Shown: positions 311 to 16,963 of the stretch, piece by piece
Position numbering within the stretch: the stretch's first letter is position 1
Layout: each line of letters starts with the position of its first letter
IMG/VR virus record: IMGVR_UViG_3300021492_000027
Reading direction: 5' to 3' (one strand)
DNA length: 64,000 nt
DNA from: a virus
The notes under the pieces: model-generated
Told to the model about the DNA's origin: nothing
Databases searched by the model: none
The model's input: the letters and a program-made list of their open reading frames with translations, nothing else
Program-made: the position numbers and the translations under genes

Positions 311-676
311 TTGAGGAAGTTAGAAAGGCTGAAGAAAGCTCTCTTTACATTCAATAAAGACGAACGTGGTACAGCGACGGTATGGGCTCTGGTGTCTGCA
401 TCAGTTGCAGTTGCGGCATTGGTGATTATATTTGCGATCGTTCCGATGATAGGCTATCAGGTGGATTCGGCTGTTCCAATACCTGCGGGTTCGCAGTGGA
501 ACGCAACGGAGAACACTCAGATAGTCAGTGGTGTAGGTCTGTGGGGTGCAATCGGTCCGCTCATCAAGTTAGTGGCAATAGTGTCATTCCTCGGTCTGGT
601 GATAGCGTCCATTATAATGCTTGCGGGTAGTACAAGTGAGGAAGCCACAGGTGGTAAGGGCGGTGGAGGCGTATAA
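311..676 (+). CDS. Major capsid protein, spindle-shaped-virus type (two hydrophobic helices, basic leader ending DERG)
   Basis: Two long hydrophobic helices (WALVSASVAVAALVIIFAIVP; LWGAIGPLIKLVAIVSFLGLVIASII) joined by a loop with an NAT sequon. GGAGGTG RBS before the TTG start, TATA-like TTTATATA about 55 nt upstream, strong 3' hairpin. Confidence 0.75.
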   Translation: MRKLERLKKALFTFNKDERGTATVWALVSASVAVAALVIIFAIVPMIGYQVDSAVPIPAGSQWNATENTQIVSGVGLWGAIGPLIKLVAIVSFLGLVIASIIMLAGSTSEEATGGKGGGGV

Positions 677-777: not shown

Positions 778-1275
778 ATGGCAGAAGAAGGAGAGGGTAT
801 AGATATAGAAGCGCCGTTTTTAAATGAGACATTCAATTTCTTTACGAGGCTGGGCTACCCCATAGAGGTAAAAAACGCCATAATCGAGGCAATAAACTCT
901 TCACGATTTTCATTAGCATACAAAAAATGCCTGAAAAACACAGTAAATGTAATCTTCGATAAAGTAGTTCAGTACAGTCACCAGAAGGACATACTTATGC
1001 CAGCATTAAAAATACGCGTAATGTTACTAAAATGTCGTATAGCAGCGAACTCACGTGATATACGTCGTGTAGCTGGTGTAACCTGTATAGAAGATAGTAT
1101 CATTCTTGCTGCGGAAATGATACTTACACGGACAATAGGCGAAGACCGAGAACGGAAGTTACAGCGCTATCCGGGCTATGTAGAGCAGCGTGCGGTAAAT
1201 ACAGAAATCCCACCAATGGAGTTGCCAGAATTAGGTGAGAAACGTGAAAAAAGGAGGTTTTGGATATTTAGGTAA
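778..1275 (+). CDS. Hypothetical protein
   Basis: 165-aa ORF in the virion operon, AAAATG start. Confidence 0.7.
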   Translation: MAEEGEGIDIEAPFLNETFNFFTRLGYPIEVKNAIIEAINSSRFSLAYKKCLKNTVNVIFDKVVQYSHQKDILMPALKIRVMLLKCRIAANSRDIRRVAGVTCIEDSIILAAEMILTRTIGEDRERKLQRYPGYVEQRAVNTEIPPMELPELGEKREKRRFWIFR

Positions 1276-1283
1276 AAACTATC

Positions 1284-1658
1284 ATGAAAGCGTATAATAT
1301 TGCTTTAGCGTTATTTATTTTTAACGCAGTGATTTCGGGCATAAACGGCATGGGCATTTTCGATACCCATGTAGTGGAGATGGCACAGCCAGTGAATGAG
1401 ACGCGGATAGCTGAGGTTGTAAGTGATACCGAAACGATGCACACATACGATATGTTTGTTTTTACATCAAAGATATTAGTTAGAATGTTCTCAACTTTTT
1501 TTACTGCGCTGGTGGGTGCAATAACAGTCATTCCAATGCTCATGCAGTATGGTGTGCCTGCACATGTGATAGCAATGATACAGGGTCCGATATGGCTCGT
1601 ATATTCATGGGGTGCGGTTCAGTTCCTTACAGGTAGGAGCGGCAAAAATATAGAATAA
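1284..1658 (+). CDS. Small membrane protein (virion module)
   Basis: N-terminal hydrophobic helix plus 2-3 C-terminal TM segments. Confidence 0.7.
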   Translation: MKAYNIALALFIFNAVISGINGMGIFDTHVVEMAQPVNETRIAEVVSDTETMHTYDMFVFTSKILVRMFSTFFTALVGAITVIPMLMQYGVPAHVIAMIQGPIWLVYSWGAVQFLTGRSGKNIE

Positions 1659-1751: not shown

Positions 1752-2792
1752 ATGTCAAAAATTAAAACAACATTAGTATTAGCTTTGTTTGCAATTGCGT
1801 GCATGTTTTTTTCGTTCTCGGCAGTAATGGCAGCGGAATCACAGGATTCACTAAATGCGCAATTCACTTTGGAGCAGCAGCAACCTTCTGCTCCGTCAAT
1901 TTCAGGCTTAACGAATTCCACACCTGACTACGATTCAGTTACAATCACATGGACGACGAACCAGAGCAACTCAAATAACCGTGTAAAATACAGCAAAAAT
2001 TCGGATTTATCTGGTGCGGTCTGGAGCTCATGGGCAAATGGCACAAGCAATGTTGCAATAGAACTAACGGCCTTGGAACAGGGCACAACCTATTATTATC
2101 AAGCGTGGTCATATAATGCTTTGGATAGTAGCTATAACACATCAGAACCATCATCAGCGCCTTATAGGAGTTTCACTACACAGAGTATCCCACATGGGTT
2201 GGCTTTAGCAAATGCGATAAACGCAAACGATACAGTAGGTGTTCATGCATCATATTCAAACGATGTAGTGACAATAACAGCCGATAGTCCCGGAGAAGAT
2301 GGTAATAACATAACAACAAGCGAAACAATAGCAAATGCGTCATTTGCGTCTTCATCACTCACAGGTGGCGGTACGGCAACCAGTGTATGGGCGCAATATC
2401 AAGATTACGGGTTAGATTTATGGAGCTCAATAGGTGGCTTGATACTATTGGTTGCGATTGTTATTGTGCTGGGACTGGTGCTAACCGGAGTAATAAGCTT
2501 CGGTACTGGTAATGTGGAATCGCCCGTGTCTAATACTTTCATGCTCGTGAGTGTAACTGTAGCAATTGCAGCGCTAATAATCATAGCCGCAGTAGTGCCA
2601 CGTATGGGCTATTTAGTGCAGGAGTCAATACCAATGACAAAAGACACTTATGCATCGAATACTTTGACCTTTACGGGACCCGCAGTAGATGGTGAGACAG
2701 TGACAATCTCAGATGGTGTGCGGACAGATGTCTATGAGTTCGATACTGACAATAGCATAACAGCAGGACATATAAGAGTGGCAATATCATGA
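1752..2792 (+). CDS. Circularly permuted capsid-protein paralog with signal peptide, FN3 domain and split beta-domain
   Basis: Order: signal peptide, FN3 (TITWTTN...YYYQAWS), C-half of a beta domain, MCP helix-2 homolog, MCP helix-1 homolog, N-half of the beta domain. Confidence 0.7.
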   Translation: MSKIKTTLVLALFAIACMFFSFSAVMAAESQDSLNAQFTLEQQQPSAPSISGLTNSTPDYDSVTITWTTNQSNSNNRVKYSKNSDLSGAVWSSWANGTSNVAIELTALEQGTTYYYQAWSYNALDSSYNTSEPSSAPYRSFTTQSIPHGLALANAINANDTVGVHASYSNDVVTITADSPGEDGNNITTSETIANASFASSSLTGGGTATSVWAQYQDYGLDLWSSIGGLILLVAIVIVLGLVLTGVISFGTGNVESPVSNTFMLVSVTVAIAALIIIAAVVPRMGYLVQESIPMTKDTYASNTLTFTGPAVDGETVTISDGVRTDVYEFDTDNSITAGHIRVAIS

Positions 2793-2853: not shown

Positions 2854-5592
2854 GTGAGTAGTGAAATGAGCAAGAGGATAGTGGTTGGTGGCTTGACTGG
2901 TATAGCATTGGTATTGTTAGTATTTGGGGCGATGCAACCTGTTAGTGCTGCATGGACGAAGATAGCGCCAATACATGTCAACAATACAGGAGGTAATGCA
3001 CAGGCATATTATCCAGTCAGGCTTCTTGTGCCTTATGACAGCGATATGAACAGTAATTTTTCAGATTTAAGAGTAGTAGTGAATGAGACTTATAATTTCA
3101 TACCGTATTGGATAGAAAATAAATCCGATGGCGAATGGTGTGCGTTGTGGTTCAATGCTACATATATACCAGCGAATAGTTGGTGTAATGATACTTACTA
3201 CCTTCTTTATGGTAATGCTTCAGCGAGTGATGCGAGTGATGGCTCCGCAGTTTTTGAGTTTTTTGATGATATGAGTGGTGTGCTTCAGGATATTGATTAT
3301 ATCTCAGATGGTAGCGATAGAGCTACCGCCTACGAGATGTCTAATAAAATAGTGCGATACGGAAATAAAACGCACATTGGGTATTTAAAATACGAAGGAG
3401 GGAGCCACAAAGCTTATGTGAGAACCTATCACCATGATACTGGTGAGTGGGACGATGAGGTTTTTTTGGGCAGTGTATATGATAATCACGGCGGACCCGC
3501 TCTTGCTGTTGATTCAAACGGCTATCTTTATGTTTTTTATGATGGTCACCATACAACCTTGAAATGGCGAAAAAGTACTAATCCTAATGACGCATCTTCT
3601 TGGACTGATGCGGAGGCTGTACCGAATCAAGCCATCGACCCGACTTATCCTTCAGTTGTAGTGGACTCTTCTAATAATATACATTTAATATATAGAGGCG
3701 ATCAGACTACTGATTGTAAACTTTATTATCAAAAATATAATGGTTCATCGTGGAGTGCTGCTACAACATTAGCAGAAGATAGTTCATCTCTCACACCTGA
3801 ATATTCCTGTTCAATAGCCATTGATAGCAATGACGTACTCCATGTTGGTGTGCATTTTTTTGATAATTCAGCGAATAAAGGCAAAAAAGCAGGGTACATG
3901 AAGTCAGATGATGGAGGTAGCACTTGGAAAAAGTCAGATGGAACAACTTATACTTTGCCTATCACCTATTCGACTTTAGAAACTGTGGAAACCGGTGATG
4001 ATTTGAGATTAGGTAATATAGCAGTTGATTCTGATGGGCATCCTTTTTTCGTTGTACATCGTCTTCACAATTCACCAAAGGATGGTCAATTCTGGCGTTA
4101 CAATGGTACTTCATGGGTTGGTACAACTTTGTCTATTTCGGGTAAGGATTTATATCCTTCTTCGACCACTTTTTTGAATGGTATAATTTATGTTTTCCTG
4201 CATGTGGGGAGTTCATGGAATGCCAATGATTGCGAAGTTTATATGTTTTATAGTTCTGATAACGGTTCAACTTTCACATCTAAACAGATTTCTACTACGG
4301 ATTCTTCAAATGCGAACTGGCTCTCAAATGCAGAACAGAAAAATGGTGCAAATACATTGTCGGAAATGCGAGTGATGTGGACACATGGTAGTTCTATTCC
4401 TACTGAGATATACTTTGCGAAAATAAATGAAGATTATGATGCGGAATTGTATTCGTTTGGTTTGGATTATGTTTCAAGGTACACGTGGGATACAACATAT
4501 TGGAGTGATTATACTGATGATTATATTAGTGCTCCAAAATCAAAACATGGACAGACAACTGACTCAGAGAATGAACCAGCAGAGGTAACTGGTGTGAATC
4601 TCTCCGAGAAGAAGAACATGCCTACATCTGGTGTGATTGAGGTTAATCTAAAAGATTTAGGTGGTTCTAATGAATGGATTTCTATTGATAGTTCAAACGG
4701 TAAAATAATTTGTGCTGGTAATCATTATACGGATCGAGGTTTTTATCGTGGCGACTGGGCGAATTGGGCAGGTTATGACGATATTTGTGTTCTTTTTGAT
4801 GGAAATTGGCATAAGTTCATTGTTAGATACACACCAACTTCGACACAAATTCAAGTAGATGATAGAGATCCGGTAGATTTGCCAACAACAACAGAAGTTG
4901 GATATCCAACTATGTTTGGTTTGACCGATACTTCAACGAGTGTCGCTAATAATTATATCGTGGATAATTTATTTGTTCGCAAATACACCGACCCAGAGCC
5001 AACAGCACAACTCGGTACAGAGCAAAATATAAGCTTTGAAGGATGTACTGCTCCTACTATTACAAATCTTACAAACTCCACACCAACCACAAATAGTGTA
5101 ACCATCACATGGACAACTAACCAAAGTGCAGATAATCGTGTGAAATATTCAAAAAATAGCGATTTATCCGATCCGTTATGGAGCTCATGGGCTAATGATA
5201 CTACTTCAATAAGCATAACTCTAACAGGTCTCGAAGCAAACACAACATATTACTATCAAGCATGGTCATACAATGGCACAAATAGTAGTTGCTTTACAGT
5301 AGAGCCATCTTCACAGCCATATAGGAGTTTCACAACACAAAGCAGTGGCGGGCAATACACAATCACTTTAGCCAAAGGTTACAACATGATAGGTTGGACG
5401 AGTACAACCCCAAAAACATCATCAGAACTATGTAATATAGTGCCAAATTGCAGCTATGTATACAAAAAGAACCCAGACAGCTCATGGACAATGAAGCAGT
5501 GTGGCTATCCTGGCGGTGACTTTAGTGTCTCACGCGGATTTGGCTTCTTAGCGTATATAACTCAAGAGTGTGACTGGACAAGAGATGAGTAA
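2854..5592 (+). CDS. Adhesin/fibre protein: DUF2341, BNR-repeat beta-propeller, FN3, Cys-containing C-terminal module
   Basis: Signal peptide; DUF2341-like FSDLRV...IPYWIE...YYLLYGN; BNR motifs (HGGPALAVDSNGYL, YMKSDDGGSTW, YSSDNGSTF); FN3; C-terminal YTITLAKGYNMIGW...WTRDE. Confidence 0.75.
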   Translation: MSSEMSKRIVVGGLTGIALVLLVFGAMQPVSAAWTKIAPIHVNNTGGNAQAYYPVRLLVPYDSDMNSNFSDLRVVVNETYNFIPYWIENKSDGEWCALWFNATYIPANSWCNDTYYLLYGNASASDASDGSAVFEFFDDMSGVLQDIDYISDGSDRATAYEMSNKIVRYGNKTHIGYLKYEGGSHKAYVRTYHHDTGEWDDEVFLGSVYDNHGGPALAVDSNGYLYVFYDGHHTTLKWRKSTNPNDASSWTDAEAVPNQAIDPTYPSVVVDSSNNIHLIYRGDQTTDCKLYYQKYNGSSWSAATTLAEDSSSLTPEYSCSIAIDSNDVLHVGVHFFDNSANKGKKAGYMKSDDGGSTWKKSDGTTYTLPITYSTLETVETGDDLRLGNIAVDSDGHPFFVVHRLHNSPKDGQFWRYNGTSWVGTTLSISGKDLYPSSTTFLNGIIYVFLHVGSSWNANDCEVYMFYSSDNGSTFTSKQISTTDSSNANWLSNAEQKNGANTLSEMRVMWTHGSSIPTEIYFAKINEDYDAELYSFGLDYVSRYTWDTTYWSDYTDDYISAPKSKHGQTTDSENEPAEVTGVNLSEKKNMPTSGVIEVNLKDLGGSNEWISIDSSNGKIICAGNHYTDRGFYRGDWANWAGYDDICVLFDGNWHKFIVRYTPTSTQIQVDDRDPVDLPTTTEVGYPTMFGLTDTSTSVANNYIVDNLFVRKYTDPEPTAQLGTEQNISFEGCTAPTITNLTNSTPTTNSVTITWTTNQSADNRVKYSKNSDLSDPLWSSWANDTTSISITLTGLEANTTYYYQAWSYNGTNSSCFTVEPSSQPYRSFTTQSSGGQYTITLAKGYNMIGWTSTTPKTSSELCNIVPNCSYVYKKNPDSSWTMKQCGYPGGDFSVSRGFGFLAYITQECDWTRDE

Positions 5593-6998: not shown

Positions 6999-7579
6999 AT
7001 AAATTTTTAGTACCGGTTTTAGTGATAGCTATTTTTGTTTCAGTTATGCCGTTATGTAGTGCATTCACAGTCACGGGCAAACAGATAACGAGTATCCATC
7101 CGGGTAAGAACACAAAAACGATAACAGTGAAAAACACAGGTGATAGCACATTGGTTGTCAAGCTCATACCGACAGCCGACCAGTACTATACACCGGAAAA
7201 TATCTCTTTCAAGTTAAATGAGAATTGGCAAAAGAGATTTAATAACAGTAAGAGCTGGCGGCGTGTGTACTGGATAACAACGAAATATGGTGAAGCGATA
7301 ATAGCGCCACATACAAGTGAGGATATCAAGTTCACAATAGATGTGCCTGAGAATATAACAGCAGGCACATTCTATGCGAAGGTGGAGATAAAAGACATAA
7401 CGGAGAAGCAGGGGCTAATTGTTATCCGTCCGATATATGTGTCGCAGATAGCAGCGCAAATAAACTCTTCAGGTATGCAAAGCGGTATTCCAACCAAGCT
7501 ATCATATATTTTCTTTTTTATGATTGTGCTCTTATTATTATTGAAGCAAAAAATAAAGAAGATGCTGTATGAGCAATAG
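6989..7579 (+). CDS. Secreted Ig-like protein with C-terminal membrane anchor
   Basis: Signal peptide, TITVKNTGD Ig-like motif, C-terminal TM plus basic tail. Start moved to ATG 6989. Confidence 0.6.
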   Translation: MELNKFLVPVLVIAIFVSVMPLCSAFTVTGKQITSIHPGKNTKTITVKNTGDSTLVVKLIPTADQYYTPENISFKLNENWQKRFNNSKSWRRVYWITTKYGEAIIAPHTSEDIKFTIDVPENITAGTFYAKVEIKDITEKQGLIVIRPIYVSQIAAQINSSGMQSGIPTKLSYIFFFMIVLLLLLKQKIKKMLYEQ

Positions 7580-8594
7580 CAAAAGAAAGCTGATTCTTCT
7601 CATAGCAGTGATAGCTACACTATCGCTATTTGCGGTAAGTGCATTAGCGAGCAATGCGGATATTGTATCAGTAGGGTTTACACTTGTCAAAAGTGCAAGT
7701 TCTGCTGTTAGTGATAGCGTATCAATAGGTTTTAGTTTGGTCAAAAGCGCTTTAAGTTCAGTATCGAGTACTTTGTCGGTAGGCTTTACGCTTGTTAAAA
7801 GCATAGTGTCATCGGCAACAAGCATTATATCGGTAGGATTTACGCTTATCAAACAAGCAATAAGCATAGTATTTGCAACAATAAATACAACCTTTCATTT
7901 AAGTCCAGCGCCAACACCGACGCCAACGCCACCACCATCGAAATTCTATGTGCAAATCACATCGAATAATTGTCCGGTATATATCAATCAGACAGCGTAT
8001 TTCAGTGCAACAGCAGGTGGTTCAGACCTTGTCTATCCACTAACTTTCTATTGGGACTTTGGTGACGGCACAACAGAAGTATATCCAATGCCTATTTTTG
8101 TGAATACTTCCAATGTCACACATGTATTTCCGTCGTATTGGCGTTCATGGGATGTAAAGGTGACAGTATTAGACCAAGTTTTTCATGAAGCGGAAGCTAC
8201 TGTTACATGTTGTGTAGTACGGACAAAAACAGACGAGCATGTTGATACAATAGACGATTCAGCCTATTATGCTTTATTGAATGCGCTTGTGGGTCAGACC
8301 TTTGAGGGACCGATAAACGAAAGCGCCGAACCCAACTTCATCGAATTTGGTAAAAGCGTTACAATCCCATATACAAATATTCTTGGTAGCTTATTCTTTG
8401 TTATCTTCTTTGGTGCGTTCTTCATAATGATGTGGCTACGGCAGGGCAATATCGCTATCCCGTCAACGATAGGAATAATAGTAGGTGGTGTTTTATTGAA
8501 GTACGCACCTGCGGAGTTCAGATTACCCGCGATACTGTTCATTTCATTCAATATATTTGGCATAATCTATACGCTACTCAAAGAGCGCAGTTAA
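7569..8594 (+). CDS. Membrane-anchored PKD-domain protein with four 18-aa N-terminal repeats
   Basis: Signal peptide, 4x S(V/I)GF(T/S)L(V/I)K repeats, PT linker, PKD motif YWDFGDG, three C-terminal TMs. Confidence 0.7.
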   Translation: MSNSKRKLILLIAVIATLSLFAVSALASNADIVSVGFTLVKSASSAVSDSVSIGFSLVKSALSSVSSTLSVGFTLVKSIVSSATSIISVGFTLIKQAISIVFATINTTFHLSPAPTPTPTPPPSKFYVQITSNNCPVYINQTAYFSATAGGSDLVYPLTFYWDFGDGTTEVYPMPIFVNTSNVTHVFPSYWRSWDVKVTVLDQVFHEAEATVTCCVVRTKTDEHVDTIDDSAYYALLNALVGQTFEGPINESAEPNFIEFGKSVTIPYTNILGSLFFVIFFGAFFIMMWLRQGNIAIPSTIGIIVGGVLLKYAPAEFRLPAILFISFNIFGIIYTLLKERS

Positions 8595-9025: not shown

Positions 9026-9622
9026 ATGGTAGCATCAACATCACCAGCGGCATCGTCAATACCCACAAAATTTGATATAGCGCGGTTACGTAAATACGAA
9101 CTGAACTTACAGGAACGGATTGATACAGGCTTAGTTCCTTCGTTCTATTCTTTCATGAACATTTACGCGTCAGCAATAGAAGACCTCAGAGGCGATACTG
9201 ACCTCCGTCCAGAGCTATTGACACTTTTAGCGATGGGCTATGTGAGACACAAAAGAGACAAGCTCATGAACGAGTTAGAACAGAAGATACGCGATCGCAT
9301 AAAAGAAGTTAAAAAAATGAATGATGGTTCGATATCAAATTCAGAGATAGGACGGATAAGGATAGAAGAGTCAGTAAAGATGATGGCGAGTATAATTGCA
9401 CATTTTGAAGAAAAATACGAACGCCGCCAGACAATAGGATTATTAATCTCACCAAAAGACATGGAGGAGCTCGATGCGCCTCCTATCGTGTTAGATTTGA
9501 ATTCATGCGAGGACAAGCTACGAGAGATGGGTGTGGTGATAGAGAATGCAAAAGGCGTAATAGAAGAGAGTAGTGATTATGAAGAGAGCGAAGAATACAG
9601 CGAAGAGGATGAGGAAGAATGA
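9026..9622 (+). CDS. Hypothetical protein, acidic C-terminus
   Basis: 198-aa ORF overlapping the ATPase start. Confidence 0.65.
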   Translation: MVASTSPAASSIPTKFDIARLRKYELNLQERIDTGLVPSFYSFMNIYASAIEDLRGDTDLRPELLTLLAMGYVRHKRDKLMNELEQKIRDRIKEVKKMNDGSISNSEIGRIRIEESVKMMASIIAHFEEKYERRQTIGLLISPKDMEELDAPPIVLDLNSCEDKLREMGVVIENAKGVIEESSDYEESEEYSEEDEEE

Positions 9623-10551
9623 AATACAGCGAAGTACCGGTTTATGAGCCATTGGAAGGCGCTAATAGTTTGAGCCCGTTTTTCTATCAATCACCGAAAC
9701 AGCCGCTTGCAGTAGAAATAGCCCGAAGAGTCACCTCAAAGCATAACCAAGATGCGCGTATAATAACAGTAGGTATGCAAGGTAGAGGCAAGAGCTGGCT
9801 GAGCTTGACATTGGCTTATGGCATAGCGTGTGAGGTAGCACGTATCCAGAACCGCAGGAAAGGTGTCAACACGAAATGGACGGATTATTTCAAACTCGAT
9901 AATATAGTGATAATGGATGATACGAAAGTACGTGAGGTTCTGTCGGATGTTAAACAGTACAACATCTATCTTTTTGATGATATAGGTATAGCGTGGAACG
10001 CACGTGAAGCGATGTCAAAAGGAAACAAGCTACTCAACGATGTCTTCCAAGTCTTCAGAACAGAGAACACAGTAGTAATGATGTCAATAATATCAGACTT
10101 TTTGATAGACAAAGTCCCTCGTAATTTAGTAAACTACCAAATCGAGATGGACATGTCACTGTTCAGTCAGCATTGGACATTTCCGAAAGTGTTCAATGTT
10201 GTTAGCAAGCCACGTGAGCATGCGCCCCACTATCACTATCCAAGGACAGGGGATGGCGTTGCGGTAGTACGGTTTGCCTGTCCTGCACCACCTGAGAAAC
10301 TGAGAACCGAGTATGATGTTTTGCGTCGCGAAGCAGCAACAAAAATCAGAGTGGAACGTATGAAGAACGAAGCTGAAGAAGCGAAGCGACCAAAGAGTGG
10401 TGTTAAGGGTGTCTTTCCAAACGAAGAGAAATATAAGAAAGTGGAGCAACTGATAGCAGTAGGTTTAAGTCAACGGAAAGCGTGTAAGATCATGGAATGT
10501 GACAGTGCAGCGTATCGCAAATGGCGTGACACAAAAGCAAAGGAAAACTGA
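9619..10551 (+). CDS. P-loop ATPase (packaging/assembly type of spindle-shaped viruses) with C-terminal HTH
   Basis: Walker A GMQGRGKS, Walker B YLFDD, C-terminal LSQRKACKIM HTH. Confidence 0.75.
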   Translation: MKYSEVPVYEPLEGANSLSPFFYQSPKQPLAVEIARRVTSKHNQDARIITVGMQGRGKSWLSLTLAYGIACEVARIQNRRKGVNTKWTDYFKLDNIVIMDDTKVREVLSDVKQYNIYLFDDIGIAWNAREAMSKGNKLLNDVFQVFRTENTVVMMSIISDFLIDKVPRNLVNYQIEMDMSLFSQHWTFPKVFNVVSKPREHAPHYHYPRTGDGVAVVRFACPAPPEKLRTEYDVLRREAATKIRVERMKNEAEEAKRPKSGVKGVFPNEEKYKKVEQLIAVGLSQRKACKIMECDSAAYRKWRDTKAKEN

Positions 10552-15100: not shown

Positions 15101-16963
15101 AAAGGCGAAGAATTGAAAATATTCGGGCATAAATATCCTGAGCATGAAGTTCGTATGATAAACGGACTTATAGGCAAGCCACCGGGTGCAAGATTAGGAC
15201 TAACAGAAGGTCAGTGGGTATCAGGATTGACAGAATCAGAAGCGGCTCGAATAAAATCCATGAGCAAACCGCCAAAAGATATATTAACACAAGAATTAAT
15301 ATCTCGCATAATAAAACCTCATGCTTATAGTTCTGAGCAAACAGAGCGATTACTAAAATCATTAGAAGAGCCAAAAACAGGTGGTTATTATCATTTTTAT
15401 AAGAAGTCAGTTCTGACAATACCAGAAGATTTGCCGTTACAAATACGGTCTAAGCGTATAGGTTCTAAGATGGTAGGTGAGCCACCAAAAGACATGTTAA
15501 TGCAGGAACTTATCAAGCGGATAGTTAAGCCACAAGCTTATCCTGAACACACAACAAAGCACATTTTGAAGATGATGGAAGAGCCAAAGACAGGCGAATC
15601 TTATTATGAACTATATAAAAAGTCAATACTAACAGTACCAGAGGACTTACCATTACAAATACGGTTTAAGCGTTTAAAGCAATCAAAACAAGAAGTTTTA
15701 GGCTCAGCTACTGATTTTTTGAGGTCGTTGAAGTTCCCGCAGATATATGGTGAAGCGCCAGTGATAATCAAGTCAGAGCAGGTGCCACCTATACAGATAG
15801 GCAAAATATCTTCAATGAAAGATATGCGTATAAGATATGCAGGTGATGCGCGTGTAATAATAGGTGAATCAGAATCTTTGGCGCGTCAGGTAAAACGTCA
15901 GCAATCTTTATTTTTACAAAGGGTTTCCAAACAACAGTCACCAGAAGCAGCGAAGCTCATGAGCATAACAGGTAAAATATCAAAAGATAAAGTATTGGAG
16001 AATCTTAAAAGAAATTATGAGATAAAAAAGAGCTGGAAGAAAGAAGAGGAGAAGCTTTTAAAGGGTGGTGAATATGCTCGTAAGATGGTTGGCGATCAAG
16101 TTCTAATCCAGAAGACTACTACCAAAGAAGCAAAATCTGAAGCAAAAATACAAAAACCACAAGAGCCAAAACAAGAGCAAAAATTAGCTAAATCCATAGA
16201 AAAATCGTTTGAAACTGAGCGAGAAAAAGTAGTTAGCGGGCAAAAGGATATTATGAAGAGCTTGGTAGGTAGGGCTGTGTTTATAAAACAGCCTAAGCAA
16301 AAAAAGATGCAAAAACAATATCCAATTTTATTTCACGGAAAGGAAGATTATGAAAGAAGAATAGCTAAAAATTTTGAAGAGCTCATAAAAAAAAGCCAGC
16401 CTAAGTCGTTAGGCATACAGAAAGAGTTGCAAAAAACTCCACCAAGGTATGAGCCATTTGAGAGCTACAAATTCTTTTATGTTCCTGTGGAACTACCCAA
16501 AGAGAGACAATCATTTATCACTTCCTTTGCATCAGTTAAGCCCGGTGTAACACCTATACCTGCTACTGTTTCGGTCTCAAAGCCTAAATCTCCTGAAATG
16601 CCGCGTGAAAAGCTATATACTGAGAAGCCATATATACCGGAGATTGAGTTTCAGTATTTTCCTGTCCCACCACCCATATTTCCATCGAGAGTGAAACGAC
16701 CCCGCCGTCCCGGACGTTCACCCTATGAATGGTTTGAACGTCATCCTATGCCGACATTGAGAACGCTATTTGGTAGCGGTATAACACAAAAAACCGGCAT
16801 GGCGATAATGACCCAGCTAATAGGCGTAACACCAAAGAAAAGATCATCAGCAAAGAAAAAACCATCAGTATCGAAACGAAAGCACAAAGCAAAACCATCA
16901 TCAATACCTGTTAGTGGTGTGGGCATGATGACGCAACTAATAGGCGAAATGCCGAAAAGATAA
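12125..16963 (+). CDS. Very large basic, largely helical virion-module protein (1612 aa) with central hydrophobic segments and internal repeats
   Basis: Coiled-coil-like N-part, Gly/Ala-rich hydrophobic core, about 70-aa tandem repeat, basic C-terminal repeat. Confidence 0.75.
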   Translation: MKRQQPVVSERVYREVISRAEQGKVPLYPSVVRKKAIERYKTEKIAELKRAQEEAERKIREEQIRREERRRRAEQQRQEQYRKAEEASKGRVHTGQWVKIEEGGKSVSVRDMAALSPSQAKALGFKWGTFKANPQTGTFEFVPLPTPTEPTEPEYYGLLKWKYESGYYKNVPQMEKIIKKEIEVGGKKYGIKAPAWASGFAKEYEAVARQIKQAYTKASEYAAKPAPSELKKTKKKSVPKSITKQNISQYQRLTTLAQHPEVQAYINKMQSLQSISTELQTQGVEIERQTEAHNKLVTELNRTFEEYQKGGWTPEEIAKYNLLAGAVTGIEKELEPKITKYEKRAKKLEKTLKQPKSKVVKEFETLSKSFMEQYSPKQISQIEKAMIVSFPAKKQPMQEVTFTGLGEYIKSTGRVPVFTIPEQAYPRPPTAIESLIEPIKRLTGHYPEKEKALSSTLSTYRKQQLGLAESLGIIHKERGKRYIIVNNTKYYEGTKGFDEHLGEAIQSKLSIKPPPEVKRRQEAIHEAERIKSEFMKTYGAKPGEPIILATPESQKAFERVRSAFEAIPEESATTKAYWEEARKIRQAQPQIEEINVLAKQVTKQAKEMERIQKERLFGIPYKIETLEEKYSPTKKFIPPVTPYAEVKTPEDLVKAIKETYKWGGTKLTKQQEEAIRESFKKGERISKSYRRVWGLPSEPFEWEKKAAQLTAGIKTGQVEEIREHPVKGAITVASFAALPPMFKGAKYLWGIRAGETVGMAAKLPVLTKYAPKFVMGGMGAGYAGAVGYEAYKAPTLQSKGKVFGRASVELAEMSAGAYIGAKAMPSYLKKIEVSQFGAKKIYRGLGIGEVPRPVFGYYKEELKTPDINLVRRDLVLGKKFHVLEQSKKFAERIAGGRVSKKPARQWTHEDIKSVEEYLAMHRARGGEARAQKFEELEKKKMALKKEPYETVFTSGIAPSEIYGGVVPSPRIKMPKLPRPSHLPPEMMTSGIIKGEELKIFGHKYPEHEVRMINGLIGKPPGARLGLTEGQWVSGLTESEAARIKSMSKPPKDILTQELISRIIKPHAYSSEQTERLLKSLEEPKTGGYYHFYKKSVLTIPEDLPLQIRSKRIGSKMVGEPPKDMLMQELIKRIVKPQAYPEHTTKHILKMMEEPKTGESYYELYKKSILTVPEDLPLQIRFKRLKQSKQEVLGSATDFLRSLKFPQIYGEAPVIIKSEQVPPIQIGKISSMKDMRIRYAGDARVIIGESESLARQVKRQQSLFLQRVSKQQSPEAAKLMSITGKISKDKVLENLKRNYEIKKSWKKEEEKLLKGGEYARKMVGDQVLIQKTTTKEAKSEAKIQKPQEPKQEQKLAKSIEKSFETEREKVVSGQKDIMKSLVGRAVFIKQPKQKKMQKQYPILFHGKEDYERRIAKNFEELIKKSQPKSLGIQKELQKTPPRYEPFESYKFFYVPVELPKERQSFITSFASVKPGVTPIPATVSVSKPKSPEMPREKLYTEKPYIPEIEFQYFPVPPPIFPSRVKRPRRPGRSPYEWFERHPMPTLRTLFGSGITQKTGMAIMTQLIGVTPKKRSSAKKKPSVSKRKHKAKPSSIPVSGVGMMTQLIGEMPKR

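Follow-up and report, generated by a model that had tools for sequence, protein, structure and literature searches.

Genes and features at the locus

The window is the whole stretch of viral DNA that was analysed, 64,000 nucleotides in length (IMG/VR record IMGVR_UViG_3300021492_000027). Its gene content is that of a large replicating virus-like genome: it encodes PolB, RFC, a primase, a helicase, and a subunit of RNA polymerase, and ATPases of the secretion or conjugation type were not seen in it. In the GenBank phage and archaeal-virus collection, the only matches of the window PolB were halovirus polymerases (24% identity), and tblastn of the 121-amino-acid (aa) hairpin protein and of ORF1752 against the same collection gave no match.

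The features are listed in Table 1. ORF1752 sits in a structural gene block beside other secreted fibre-like proteins. The ATPase at 9619-10551 matched phrog_5484 (E 1e-6), which His1 ORF16 matches at E 2.8e-62. Neither of two candidate ATPases gave a significant pairwise BLASTP match to His1 ORF16, and the PHROG match alone makes this link. By eye, the 124-aa protein encoded upstream of ORF1752 resembles a 116-aa protein in contig L005.

Table 1. Features of the hairpin-protein gene, ORF1752, and neighbouring genes in the window.
Feature	Position (strand)	Residues	Basis or remark
121-aa two-helix hairpin protein, putative major capsid protein (MCP)	311..676 (+)		15 homologues; two hydrophobic helices
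Helix A of the 121-aa protein	362-481 (+)	18-57	
Outer loop of the 121-aa protein	482-529 (+)		Conserved W-N-A-T sequon
Helix B of the 121-aa protein	530-616 (+)	74-102	
Conserved gene pair (165 aa, 124 aa) lying between hairpin-protein gene and ORF1752	778..1658 (+)		Order kept in a relative
ORF1752, permuted protein, 346 aa	1752..2792 (+)		Single open frame of 346 codons
Sec-type signal peptide of ORF1752	1752..1832 (+)	1-27	Read from sequence; predicted cut after V-M-A
FN3-like beta-sandwich of ORF1752	1887..2186 (+)	46-145	Pfam, likeness to ORF2854, predicted strands
C-part of the split surface domain	2190..2375 (+)	147-208	Domain HMM positions about 47/55-111
Helix B of ORF1752	2388..2501 (+)	213-250	Homologue of helix B in the hairpin protein
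Short inner linker from helix B to helix A	2502..2525 (+)		Alignments
Helix A of ORF1752	2526..2639 (+)	259-296	Homologue of helix A in the hairpin protein
N-part of the split surface domain	2643..2789 (+)	298-346	Domain HMM positions 1-45; strands beta1-beta4
Secreted adhesin-like protein, 912 aa (DUF2341, BNR_4, LamG-like)	2854..5592 (+)		Adjoins ORF1752
His1 ORF16-type ATPase, 310 aa	9619..10551 (+)		phrog_5484; within the structural block

From the N- to the C-terminus, ORF1752 consists of a signal peptide, an FN3-like domain, the C-part of a surface domain, helix B, a linker, helix A, and the N-part of the surface domain. The coordinates and the element order agree with those of the initial annotation. 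In the alignment of homologues, a hydrophobic N-terminus is retained and is followed by an A-x-A-like site. Residues 54-133 matched Pfam Pur_ac_phosph_N (E 2.9e-5; 25.0 bits, below the gathering score of 30), and several homologues have a precomputed PF16656 or PF00041 match. Seven beta strands were predicted in the FN3-like region by AlphaFold2 (pLDDT about 70-80), and the domain is 71% identical to residues 733-831 of ORF 2854 (nt 5050-5346). Beyond the weak FN3-like match, ORF1752 gave nothing informative against Pfam and PHROGs.

The two helices occur in reverse order in ORF1752

The helices of the 311-676 protein had been read as swapped in ORF1752, and the profile comparisons bear this out. 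In BLASTP, helix B of the 121-aa protein (residues 74-102) was 59% identical to ORF1752 residues 220-248 (E 1e-6), and helix A (residues 18-57) was 45% identical to residues 256-295 (E 0.045). Family profiles compared with hhalign paired A with A (probability 98.2%, E 4e-14) and B with B (97.7%, E 2.4e-12). Because the cross-matches failed (A against B, 5.9%; B against A, 1.1%), generic transmembrane composition is ruled out as the source of the likeness. When the ORF1752 helices were reset in silico to the A-B order, 76 columns aligned to the MCP profile with a score of 113, whereas in the native order one helix alone aligned, with a score of 60.

The surface domain is split into complementary pieces

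A 113-position HMM of a beta/alpha domain was built from proteins carrying the whole domain. Positions 1-45 matched ORF1752 residues 298-346 (E 5e-16) and positions 55-111 matched residues 150-206 (E 6e-20); the two pieces are complementary and stand in swapped order. The C-part comprises helix alpha1 and strands beta5-beta8, and its secondary structure agrees with a confident model of the whole domain. The initial annotation had described a beta-domain split in the same way as the helices. The complementary, swapped halves were recovered, but the 121-aa protein of the window has no beta domain. The usual domain order was seen in other proteins and is absent from the window. ORF1752 is a natural circular permutant: its helices and domain pieces are all homologous to segments of a hairpin protein of the form helix A, domain, helix B, and they are cyclically shifted.

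In total, 18 permuted proteins were found. The domain is broken at 45/47 in class 1 and at position 73 in class 2 (P0070 and P0129), and in both classes the pieces add up to exactly one domain, without loss or overlap. Nested domain copies always open at HMM positions 45-51, and the class 1 break falls in this loop, where whole-domain insertions occur. Class 1 formed a clade with a support of 100/99. A single clade for both classes, and with it a single origin of all permutants, was rejected by the AU test (p 0.0136) for a group that was named after the tree had been seen. The permuted module appears to have arisen at least twice.

The whole domain was modelled as a confident fold (P0045; pLDDT 96-98 in the domain). 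In Foldseek searches of BFVD, domains exposed on phage structural proteins matched it (E 4e-10; 30-36% identity and an rmsd of 2.2-2.7 A over ~120 columns), as did tail-sheath outer domains in the PDB (8fop: E 1.2e-3, probability 1.00). Sequence searches of Pfam, PHROGs, and the PDB with the split domain gave no match, and a scan of IMG/VR with the domain retrieved soluble, often nested phage forms only; a permuted or hairpin-flanked form was not found there.

The AlphaFold2 model of ORF1752 itself (14 sequences), whose secondary-structure elements agree with those of the confident whole-domain model, had a mean pLDDT of 55.9, with values of 31-38 around residues 180-220. This low confidence, together with an apparent two-gene version that places the pieces on different chains, would fit remnants that act separately and pair with the complementary part of a neighbouring subunit or with nothing, so that the "permutation" would be a fragment fusion only. 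We hold this to be very unlikely. The pieces are exactly complementary at two different breakpoints, and the class 1 break coincides with the nested-insertion loop. They are also the most conserved parts of the permuted protein, with 40-odd invariant positions across sequences that are 33-70% identical. The pieces of ORF1752 probably refold into one domain.

Unpermuted relatives and possible intermediates

An exhaustive HMMER search yielded 174 matches. The domain occurs in the usual order in more than 100 clusters. Unpermuted relatives, a search for which had been proposed with the initial annotation, were found: about 30 representative clusters hold proteins of roughly 200 aa in which a whole domain lies between helices A and B, and their G-rich C-tail resembles that of the 121-aa protein.

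Full-length relatives of ORF1752 (n = 11; 59-99% identity) were obtained from independent assemblies in ENA, JGI, and Logan. All keep the layout, which is identical in the more distant members. The gene order on the P0004 contig (116-160-125-346-845 aa) preserves the synteny of the window. An assembly or gene-calling artefact is refuted because the layout is conserved, and the chance that the 346-codon open frame is one is negligible; the mis-assembly that had been raised as a concern did not materialize in any of the three archives.

A permutant and an unpermuted hairpin protein occur on one contig in three distinct cases (the window, L007, and L006). The partner is a short form in the window and in L007 (76 bits). 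On the L006 contig it is an A-domain-B protein beside the permutant, and BLASTP aligned this pair in swapped order, at 44.7% identity over 123 aa (E 1e-28) and 30.8% over 120 aa (E 2e-18). Two further arrangements were observed: P0165 is a tandem A-B-A-B fusion, and in L040, a two-gene version, adjacent genes apparently place the pieces on different chains. Both are possible intermediates of the permutation. The two-gene version hints that the halves could also come together from different chains, so that domains might be swapped between adjacent subunits.

The module forms the C-terminal end of proteins with very different outer parts, up to 949 aa in length. The N-terminal ectodomains are of the FN3, carboxypeptidase-regulatory-like, DUF2341, and beta-helix types; examples are a 750-aa part (P0041), LamG plus beta-helix (P0070), and DUF2341 (P0129). 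Judged from these sequences, the module serves as a portable C-terminal anchor for unrelated ectodomains.

The 121-aa hairpin protein as a putative capsid protein

The 121-aa protein (15 homologues, 60-97% identity) has the shape of a spindle-virus MCP, with a 16-residue loop that connects two hydrophobic helices and bears an N-x-T sequon. Its C-terminal tail is G-rich. A narrow hairpin profile matched His1 VP21 with a probability of 4%; a diversified profile reached 67% (E 5e-5) over 64 collinear columns that span both helices and the S-W-N loop. VP21 had too few relatives in the collection for a profile of its own. PDB sequence searches with the 121-aa protein and with P0025 returned nothing. 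The nearest named language-model clusters were His1_capsid and VP1_VP3, both at 0.82, which is below the 0.9 level and a lead only.

The family could instead be non-capsid: a pilin-like hairpin, for example a conjugative pilin of the VirB2/CedA1 type, or an envelope hairpin of another kind of element, for instance in the membrane of a pleomorphic virus or vesicle, with the permutant as a tip or surface adhesin. Such a reading accords with the lack of capsid matches: the PF25665 (His1_capsid) and PF06281 (VP1_VP3) models did not match any of 16 short and 51 domain-bearing members, even at E 10, and the 121-aa protein matched no Pfam or PHROG capsid model. A K-D-x-R-G/A motif conserved directly before helix A in the hairpin family also resembles the class III cleavage site of archaeal prepilins, and single members gave weak noise matches in Pfam to Flp/Fap pilin and TrbK. 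We nevertheless consider a non-capsid family decidedly unlikely. The window carries the replication genes of a large virus-like genome, ATPases for secretion or conjugation were not seen in it, and its structural block encodes an ATPase of the His1 ORF16 type; the two nearest named clusters are spindle-virus MCP families, and the VP21 alignment is collinear. The 121-aa protein is probably a capsid protein. The ATPase and the VP21 profile match suggest a spindle-type context, and the shell would be a spindle-type capsid.

The hairpin of ORF1752 co-varies with the resident hairpin protein

Hairpin identity was counted over 65 aligned positions. ORF1752 shares 34/65 residues (about 52%) with the 121-aa protein of the same genome and 17/65 (26%) with the hairpin of an orthologous permutant, P0020. 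The latter shares 33/65 with the hairpin protein that its own genome encodes and 22/65 with that of the window. Between ORF1752 and P0020, identity in the domain pieces nevertheless reaches 60-62%. At the nucleotide level, the hairpin-protein gene and ORF1752 are 53-55% identical, with a longest identical run of 6 nt. Recent gene conversion between the two genes is ruled out, as synonymous sites are saturated. Hairpin likeness within a genome appears to be maintained at the protein level.

This co-variation demands an interaction, not packaging, and would also fit contact in the host membrane, for which particle entry is not required. ORF1752 would then stay unpackaged in the host membrane, the only place where its MCP-like hairpin would bind the hairpin protein. 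It could nucleate assembly or egress, act as a chaperone of the hairpin protein, exclude superinfection, or mask a receptor. Such a protein would have this signal peptide and two-helix anchor as well. The B-to-A linker of ORF1752 relatives is G-rich, resembling the C-terminal tail of the hairpin protein, and in class 1a it has zero basic residues, in contrast to the basic N-tail of the hairpin protein; a basic tail of this kind is thought to contact DNA (PMC9351363). The large adhesin-type ectodomains of the family (DUF2341, LamG, beta-helix, and PKD), however, are typical of receptor-binding virion proteins, and the gene lies in the structural block, beside those for other secreted fibre-like proteins. 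We regard an unpackaged role as unlikely.

Proposed model for ORF1752

We propose that ORF1752 is probably a shell-anchored display or adhesin subunit, permuted from a capsid-type hairpin protein and co-assembling with the MCP. The unpermuted form, known from related elements, consists of helix A, a surface domain in the outer loop, and helix B. In ORF1752, the short B-to-A linker connects the inner ends, and the break falls within the domain, at the loop that accepts whole inserted domains in other proteins. The new N-terminus has gained a Sec signal peptide and an FN3-like domain.

The signal peptide is predicted to export the FN3-like domain and the C-part of the surface domain. Helix B would then cross inward and helix A outward, and outside, the C-terminal N-part would dock on the C-part of its own or of an adjacent chain. 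The topology argument of the initial annotation holds on the SSV19 MCP, whose loop is on the outside and whose termini point inward (PMC9351363). On that template, the linker would join the inner ends, and both domain pieces and the FN3-like domain would lie outside. This export topology is likely by analogy. ORF1752 probably enters the virion and co-assembles with the 121-aa protein; its hairpin may pack among copies of that protein in the shell or at the tail end as a strand starter. ORF1752 would thus be a minor shell-anchored subunit for display or adhesion.

A broader proposal is, on balance, slightly favoured. Archaeal viruses with hairpin shells would possess a portable capsid-anchoring module that evolved at least twice by circular permutation from their own MCP; the hairpin is reversed in sequence, and the halves of the split surface domain on either side of it would snap together outside. 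Any exported ectodomain placed before the module would become a lattice-embedded fibre or adhesin, and the hairpin would co-evolve with the resident capsid protein.

How receptor-binding proteins are anchored in fluid, purely hydrophobic spindle-type shells is known from one structure only, that of SSV19. The present family points to a general, sequence-recognizable solution in which the capsid hairpin itself is reused as the anchor. In practice, it could help to pick out virion adhesins in the genomes of uncultivated archaeal viruses. The hairpin protein and the permutant form a co-varying marker pair that could predict lattice contacts, and a natural split domain with a permuted membrane hairpin may be of use in protein-topology and display engineering. 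Rarely can an unpermuted form, breaks at two independent points, and possible intermediates (here the tandem fusion and the two-gene version) all be observed in nature, as they can for this family.

Comparison with known systems

Like the 121-aa protein, the MCPs of spindle-shaped archaeal viruses (His1 VP21, PF25665; SSV1 VP1/VP3, PF06281) have two long hydrophobic helices, a short glycosylatable outer loop, and termini inside. VP21 also shares the S-W-N loop motif and the L-W start of helix B, and His1 shares the ORF16-type ATPase, which in the window lies within the same genome block. The spindle-virus MCPs and the 121-aa protein differ in that no HMM-level match exists between them, and the genome here, with contigs of about 85 kb, is far larger than those of spindle-shaped viruses. 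Spindle-shaped viruses commonly carry a second, paralogous capsid protein (bioRxiv 10.1101/2021.07.29.453957; PMC9894754). The paralogues known there, unlike ORF1752, are collinear, with no known member that has the B-A order, a loop domain, or a split domain. A permuted spindle-virus capsid protein was not found reported in the literature.

The tail proteins of SSV19 offer a parallel to the proposed function. Hydrophobic helix bundles of these proteins are embedded, and MCP strands start on them (PMC9351363). In VP4 and B210, as proposed for ORF1752, external domains (glycosylated in SSV19) are anchored through hydrophobic helices in the shell lattice, and MCP hairpins stack on the bundles to start strands (PMC9351363). 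Unlike the ORF1752 anchor, which is a permuted MCP hairpin, these are three-helix bundles that are not reported as MCP homologues.

The exposed domains of tailed phages (phage Milano sheath, 8fop; RcTitan and PhiJL001 in BFVD) match the whole form of the split domain in fold and are likewise inserted or added at the surface. They are soluble, contiguous, and often self-nested, whereas the domain here lies in a hairpin loop or is split around the hairpin.

Other protein families are known to have undergone circular permutation by duplication, fusion, and truncation, and phage BPP-1 has a topological variant of a capsid fold (PMC3863775). As in known circular permutations, the elements of ORF1752 are cyclically shifted and unpermuted relatives exist. 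Unlike them, the permuted unit spans a membrane hairpin and an outer domain, the permutation changes the exported end, and permutation, which recurs with two breakpoints, is linked to displaying additional domains.

Swapped helix order in ORF1752

The 346-aa product of ORF1752 had been described in the initial annotation as carrying the two helices of the short, putative major capsid protein (MCP) in reverse order, B before A, and both residue-level matches and per-helix profiles agree with that description (table below). Residues 220-248 are 59% identical to helix B of the 121-aa protein, and residues 256-295 are 45% identical to its helix A. Family profiles were built from 16 homologues of the 121-aa protein (60-97% identity) and 14 homologues of ORF1752. 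Helix A matched helix A with a probability of 98.2% (E 4e-14) and helix B matched helix B with 97.7% (E 2.4e-12); cross-comparisons gave 5.9% (A vs B) and 1.1% (B vs A). When the two helices of ORF1752 were returned to A-B order in silico, 76 profile columns aligned to the short protein (score 113), whereas in native order a single helix aligned (score 60). Since like helices match, cross-matches fail and re-ordering extends the alignment, the likeness is specific and the permuted order is genuine.

Assemblies in ENA, JGI, and Logan contain 11 full-length homologues (59-99% identity), all with the layout intact, and the P0004 contig has the same gene order as the window: 116 aa (hairpin protein), 160, 125, 346, and 845 aa (DUF2341). 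Recurrence across three archives with conserved gene order rules out an artefact, including the mis-assembly that the annotation had considered. The distant members P0016, P0020, P0043, and P0021 (33-37% identity) share the C-terminal module and differ in their N-terminal domains.

Features of the window and of related contigs
Feature	Location	Strand	Remark
121-aa hairpin protein	311-676	+	Hydrophobic helices A (residues 18-57) and B (74-102)
K-D-x-R-G/A motif	350-370		Residues 14-20 of the 121-aa protein
124-aa membrane protein	1284-1658
Permuted protein (ORF1752), 346 aa	1752-2792	+	Helix B match before helix A match
FN3-like domain of ORF1752	1887-2186
FN3-like domain of 912-aa protein	5050-5346
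341-aa PKD protein	7569-8594
310-aa protein in structural block	9619-10551	+	phrog_5484, family of His1 ORF16 ATPase
Counterparts of 124-aa protein and of the membrane region of the 341-aa PKD protein, adjoining P0070	L005:15429-15779, 15746-16474
86-aa two-helix protein	L007:12068-12328
Nested tailed-phage domain	L036:5485-7752
688-aa secreted PKD protein	L040:1477-3812 (span includes the 88-aa gene)		Same in L041
Helix A plus domain positions 1-73	L042:544-900

The split domain and its unpermuted form

An exhaustive HMMER search with ORF1752 residues 146-346 gave 174 hits, and a census with sub-HMMs identified the two non-helical pieces of ORF1752 as halves of one domain. More than 100 representative clusters have the domain in one piece, with the N-part first. 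About 30 clusters encode proteins of roughly 200 aa in the order helix A, whole domain, helix B, and G-rich tail (P0045, P0048, P0051, P0058, and P0088, for example); these are the unpermuted A-domain-B relatives that the annotation had predicted. Its claim that the C-half precedes helix B and the N-half is terminal also stands: on the 113-position whole-domain HMM, the piece before helix B covers positions 55-111 and the C-terminal piece positions 1-45. Many phage proteins contain copies of the domain inserted one within another, to a depth of as many as five, and the insertion point is always at positions 45-51.

In tailed-phage examples (L036; also L019, L022, and L027, and P0044, P0046, and P0049), up to four N-parts, one whole copy, and then four C-parts follow one another, with the opening at 45-51. 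P0158 and P0172 (118 aa each) and an L042 protein consist of helix A and domain positions 1-73, stopping exactly where the second class of permutants described below ends; they may be free-standing pieces or fragments. The gene upstream of the L042 protein is unrelated.

Pfam, PHROG, and PDB sequence searches with the split domain returned no match. An AlphaFold2 model of P0045 (51-sequence alignment) had a mean pLDDT of 88.8, rising to 96-98 within the domain, and showed a long helix, four strands, a helix, four strands, and a long helix; the chain break of ORF1752 falls between strand 4 and the domain helix. In BFVD, the model matched exposed domains from structural proteins of tailed phages (E 4e-10, 30-36% identity, rmsd 2.2-2.7 Å); in the PDB, it matched the outer domains of tail sheaths and domains of flagellin type.

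Ectodomains and origins of the module

The module appears to be a portable anchor with differing parts ahead of it: an FN3-like domain in ORF1752, a carboxypeptidase-regulatory-like domain in P0016, P0020, and P0043, a domain without recognised family in P0021, and about 750 residues, FN3 included, in P0041. Over 100 residues, ORF1752 and the neighbouring 912-aa protein share 71% identity in their FN3-like domains, well above the identity of the remaining sequence, which points to recent exchange of outer domains among the surface-protein genes of this genome.

P0070 (946 aa; LamG and beta-helix) and P0129 (811 aa; DUF2341) also have a C-terminal module of this type. Their domain is divided at position 73, with 2-73 in the C-terminal piece and 72-113 in the one ahead of helix B. 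In this class 2, as in class 1 (ORF1752 and its kin), the pieces sum to exactly one domain. In a tree of A-domain-B proteins and permutant modules restored to canonical order, class 1 formed a clade (support 100/99), outside which class 2 fell. A single clade of all permutants, a group chosen after tree inspection, was rejected by the AU test (p 0.0136, log-likelihood difference 36.7). These sequence comparisons suggest more than one origin of the permuted module. L006, the contig of P0129, also carries an unpermuted 207-aa A-domain-B protein, which plain BLASTP matched to P0129 with the segments swapped (44.7% over 123 aa, E 1e-28; 30.8% over 120 aa, E 2e-18).

Co-variation of paired hairpins

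A permutant and a hairpin protein occur together on three distinct contigs (the window, L006, and L007); on L007, a short-form hairpin protein (76 bits) lies 1.4 kb downstream of P0020. Over 65 aligned positions, ORF1752 shares 34 identical residues with its own-genome hairpin protein and 17 with the hairpin of its orthologue P0020, which shares 33 with its own hairpin protein and 22 with that of the window. The best match of P0129 is its own A-domain-B protein (24/65). Between ORF1752 and P0020, the domain pieces nonetheless agree at 37/62 and 28/45 positions. Recent gene conversion between the hairpin genes is ruled out: the helix DNA of ORF1752 and the window's hairpin protein is 53-55% identical with a longest identical run of 6 nt, and identical residues mostly use different codons. 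The likeness is thus kept by selection on the protein; this pattern, with paralogues closer within a genome than orthologues between genomes, would be expected if each hairpin has to fit the other.

Genome setting and capsid identity

The window is nearly all coding, on the + strand, and encodes a family B DNA polymerase, RFC-like clamp loaders, primase, helicases, a DNA methylase, an RNA polymerase Rpb1-domain-5 protein, and one tRNA. Its first 22 kb contain genes for secreted and for membrane proteins, which include regions of DUF2341, BNR, PKD, LamG-like, and beta-helix type. Contigs of up to about 85 kb carry copies of the 121-aa protein that are identical or nearly so; one NCBI fragment with a copy is assigned to a Bathyarchaeota bin. 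We take the window to belong to a large archaeal virus-like element. Visual comparison gives the 124-aa membrane protein a counterpart adjoining P0070 on the distant contig L005, and likewise the membrane region at the C-terminus of the 341-aa PKD protein, which suggests a morphogenetic gene set common to these elements.

The 121-aa family did not match the Pfam His1 and SSV capsid models. A diversified hairpin profile (47 sequences) matched His1 VP21 (probability 67%, E 5e-5) over 64 collinear columns, including a Pro late in helix A, the S-W-N motif of the loop, and the L-W that opens helix B. Among named language-model clusters, His1_capsid and VP1_VP3 came closest (both 0.82), which serve as a lead only. 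The 310-aa protein of ORF 9619-10551, within the structural block, falls into the same PHROG as His1 ORF16. Large viruses of spindle type that carry PolB and two genes for capsid proteins have been described for ANME-1 archaea (PMC9894754). This indirect evidence makes the short protein a putative capsid protein.

Directly before helix A, the 121-aa protein and A-domain-B proteins carry a conserved K-D-x-R-G/A motif with (near-)invariant D17, R19, and G20, similar to the archaeal prepilin-type (class III) cleavage site; permuted proteins lack it there. The 86-aa L007 protein, directly upstream of the short hairpin protein, has two hydrophobic helices (weak profile match, 10 bits) and may be a second capsid-protein paralogue.

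Proposed topology and intermediates

In SSV19, the MCP has its termini on the inside and its loop on the outside, and the tail proteins insert hydrophobic helix bundles, on which the MCP strands start (PMC9351363). Mapped on this topology, the B-to-A linker of ORF1752 would connect two inner ends; alignments show it to be G-rich in relatives, resembling the C-tail of the hairpin protein. The FN3 domain, the cleaved N-terminus, and both domain pieces would lie outside. The layout would amount to A-domain-B with an ectodomain in the insertion loop of the domain and a chain that is open to one side of this insert. Export is a plausible benefit: threading of a long ectodomain could be left to a Sec signal, with only about 50 residues to cross after helix A.

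Two arrangements are possible intermediates. P0165 (247 aa, on a JGI contig of 4047 bases) is an A-B-A-B tandem of two short hairpin proteins in one open frame and may be a real fusion or reflect a lost stop between tandem capsid-protein genes. On L040 and L041, a 688-aa secreted PKD protein with a signal peptide has, just ahead of its stop, a segment weakly resembling the C-part, then an S-E-W motif and a single hydrophobic helix; its tail is weakly but collinearly similar to the C-part and helix B of several family members (best P0188, E 1.5e-5). Two bases past the stop, behind GGAGG, starts an 88-aa gene with helix A and the N-part (46 bits). Five contigs have a record of the protein. If this apparent two-gene form is real, the domain pieces can come together without sharing a chain.

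The permutation is real, conserved, recurrent, and tied to the display of varied ectodomains. Literature searches found no earlier description of a permuted spindle-virus capsid protein. On the best-supported reading, ORF1752 is probably a minor subunit embedded in the shell.
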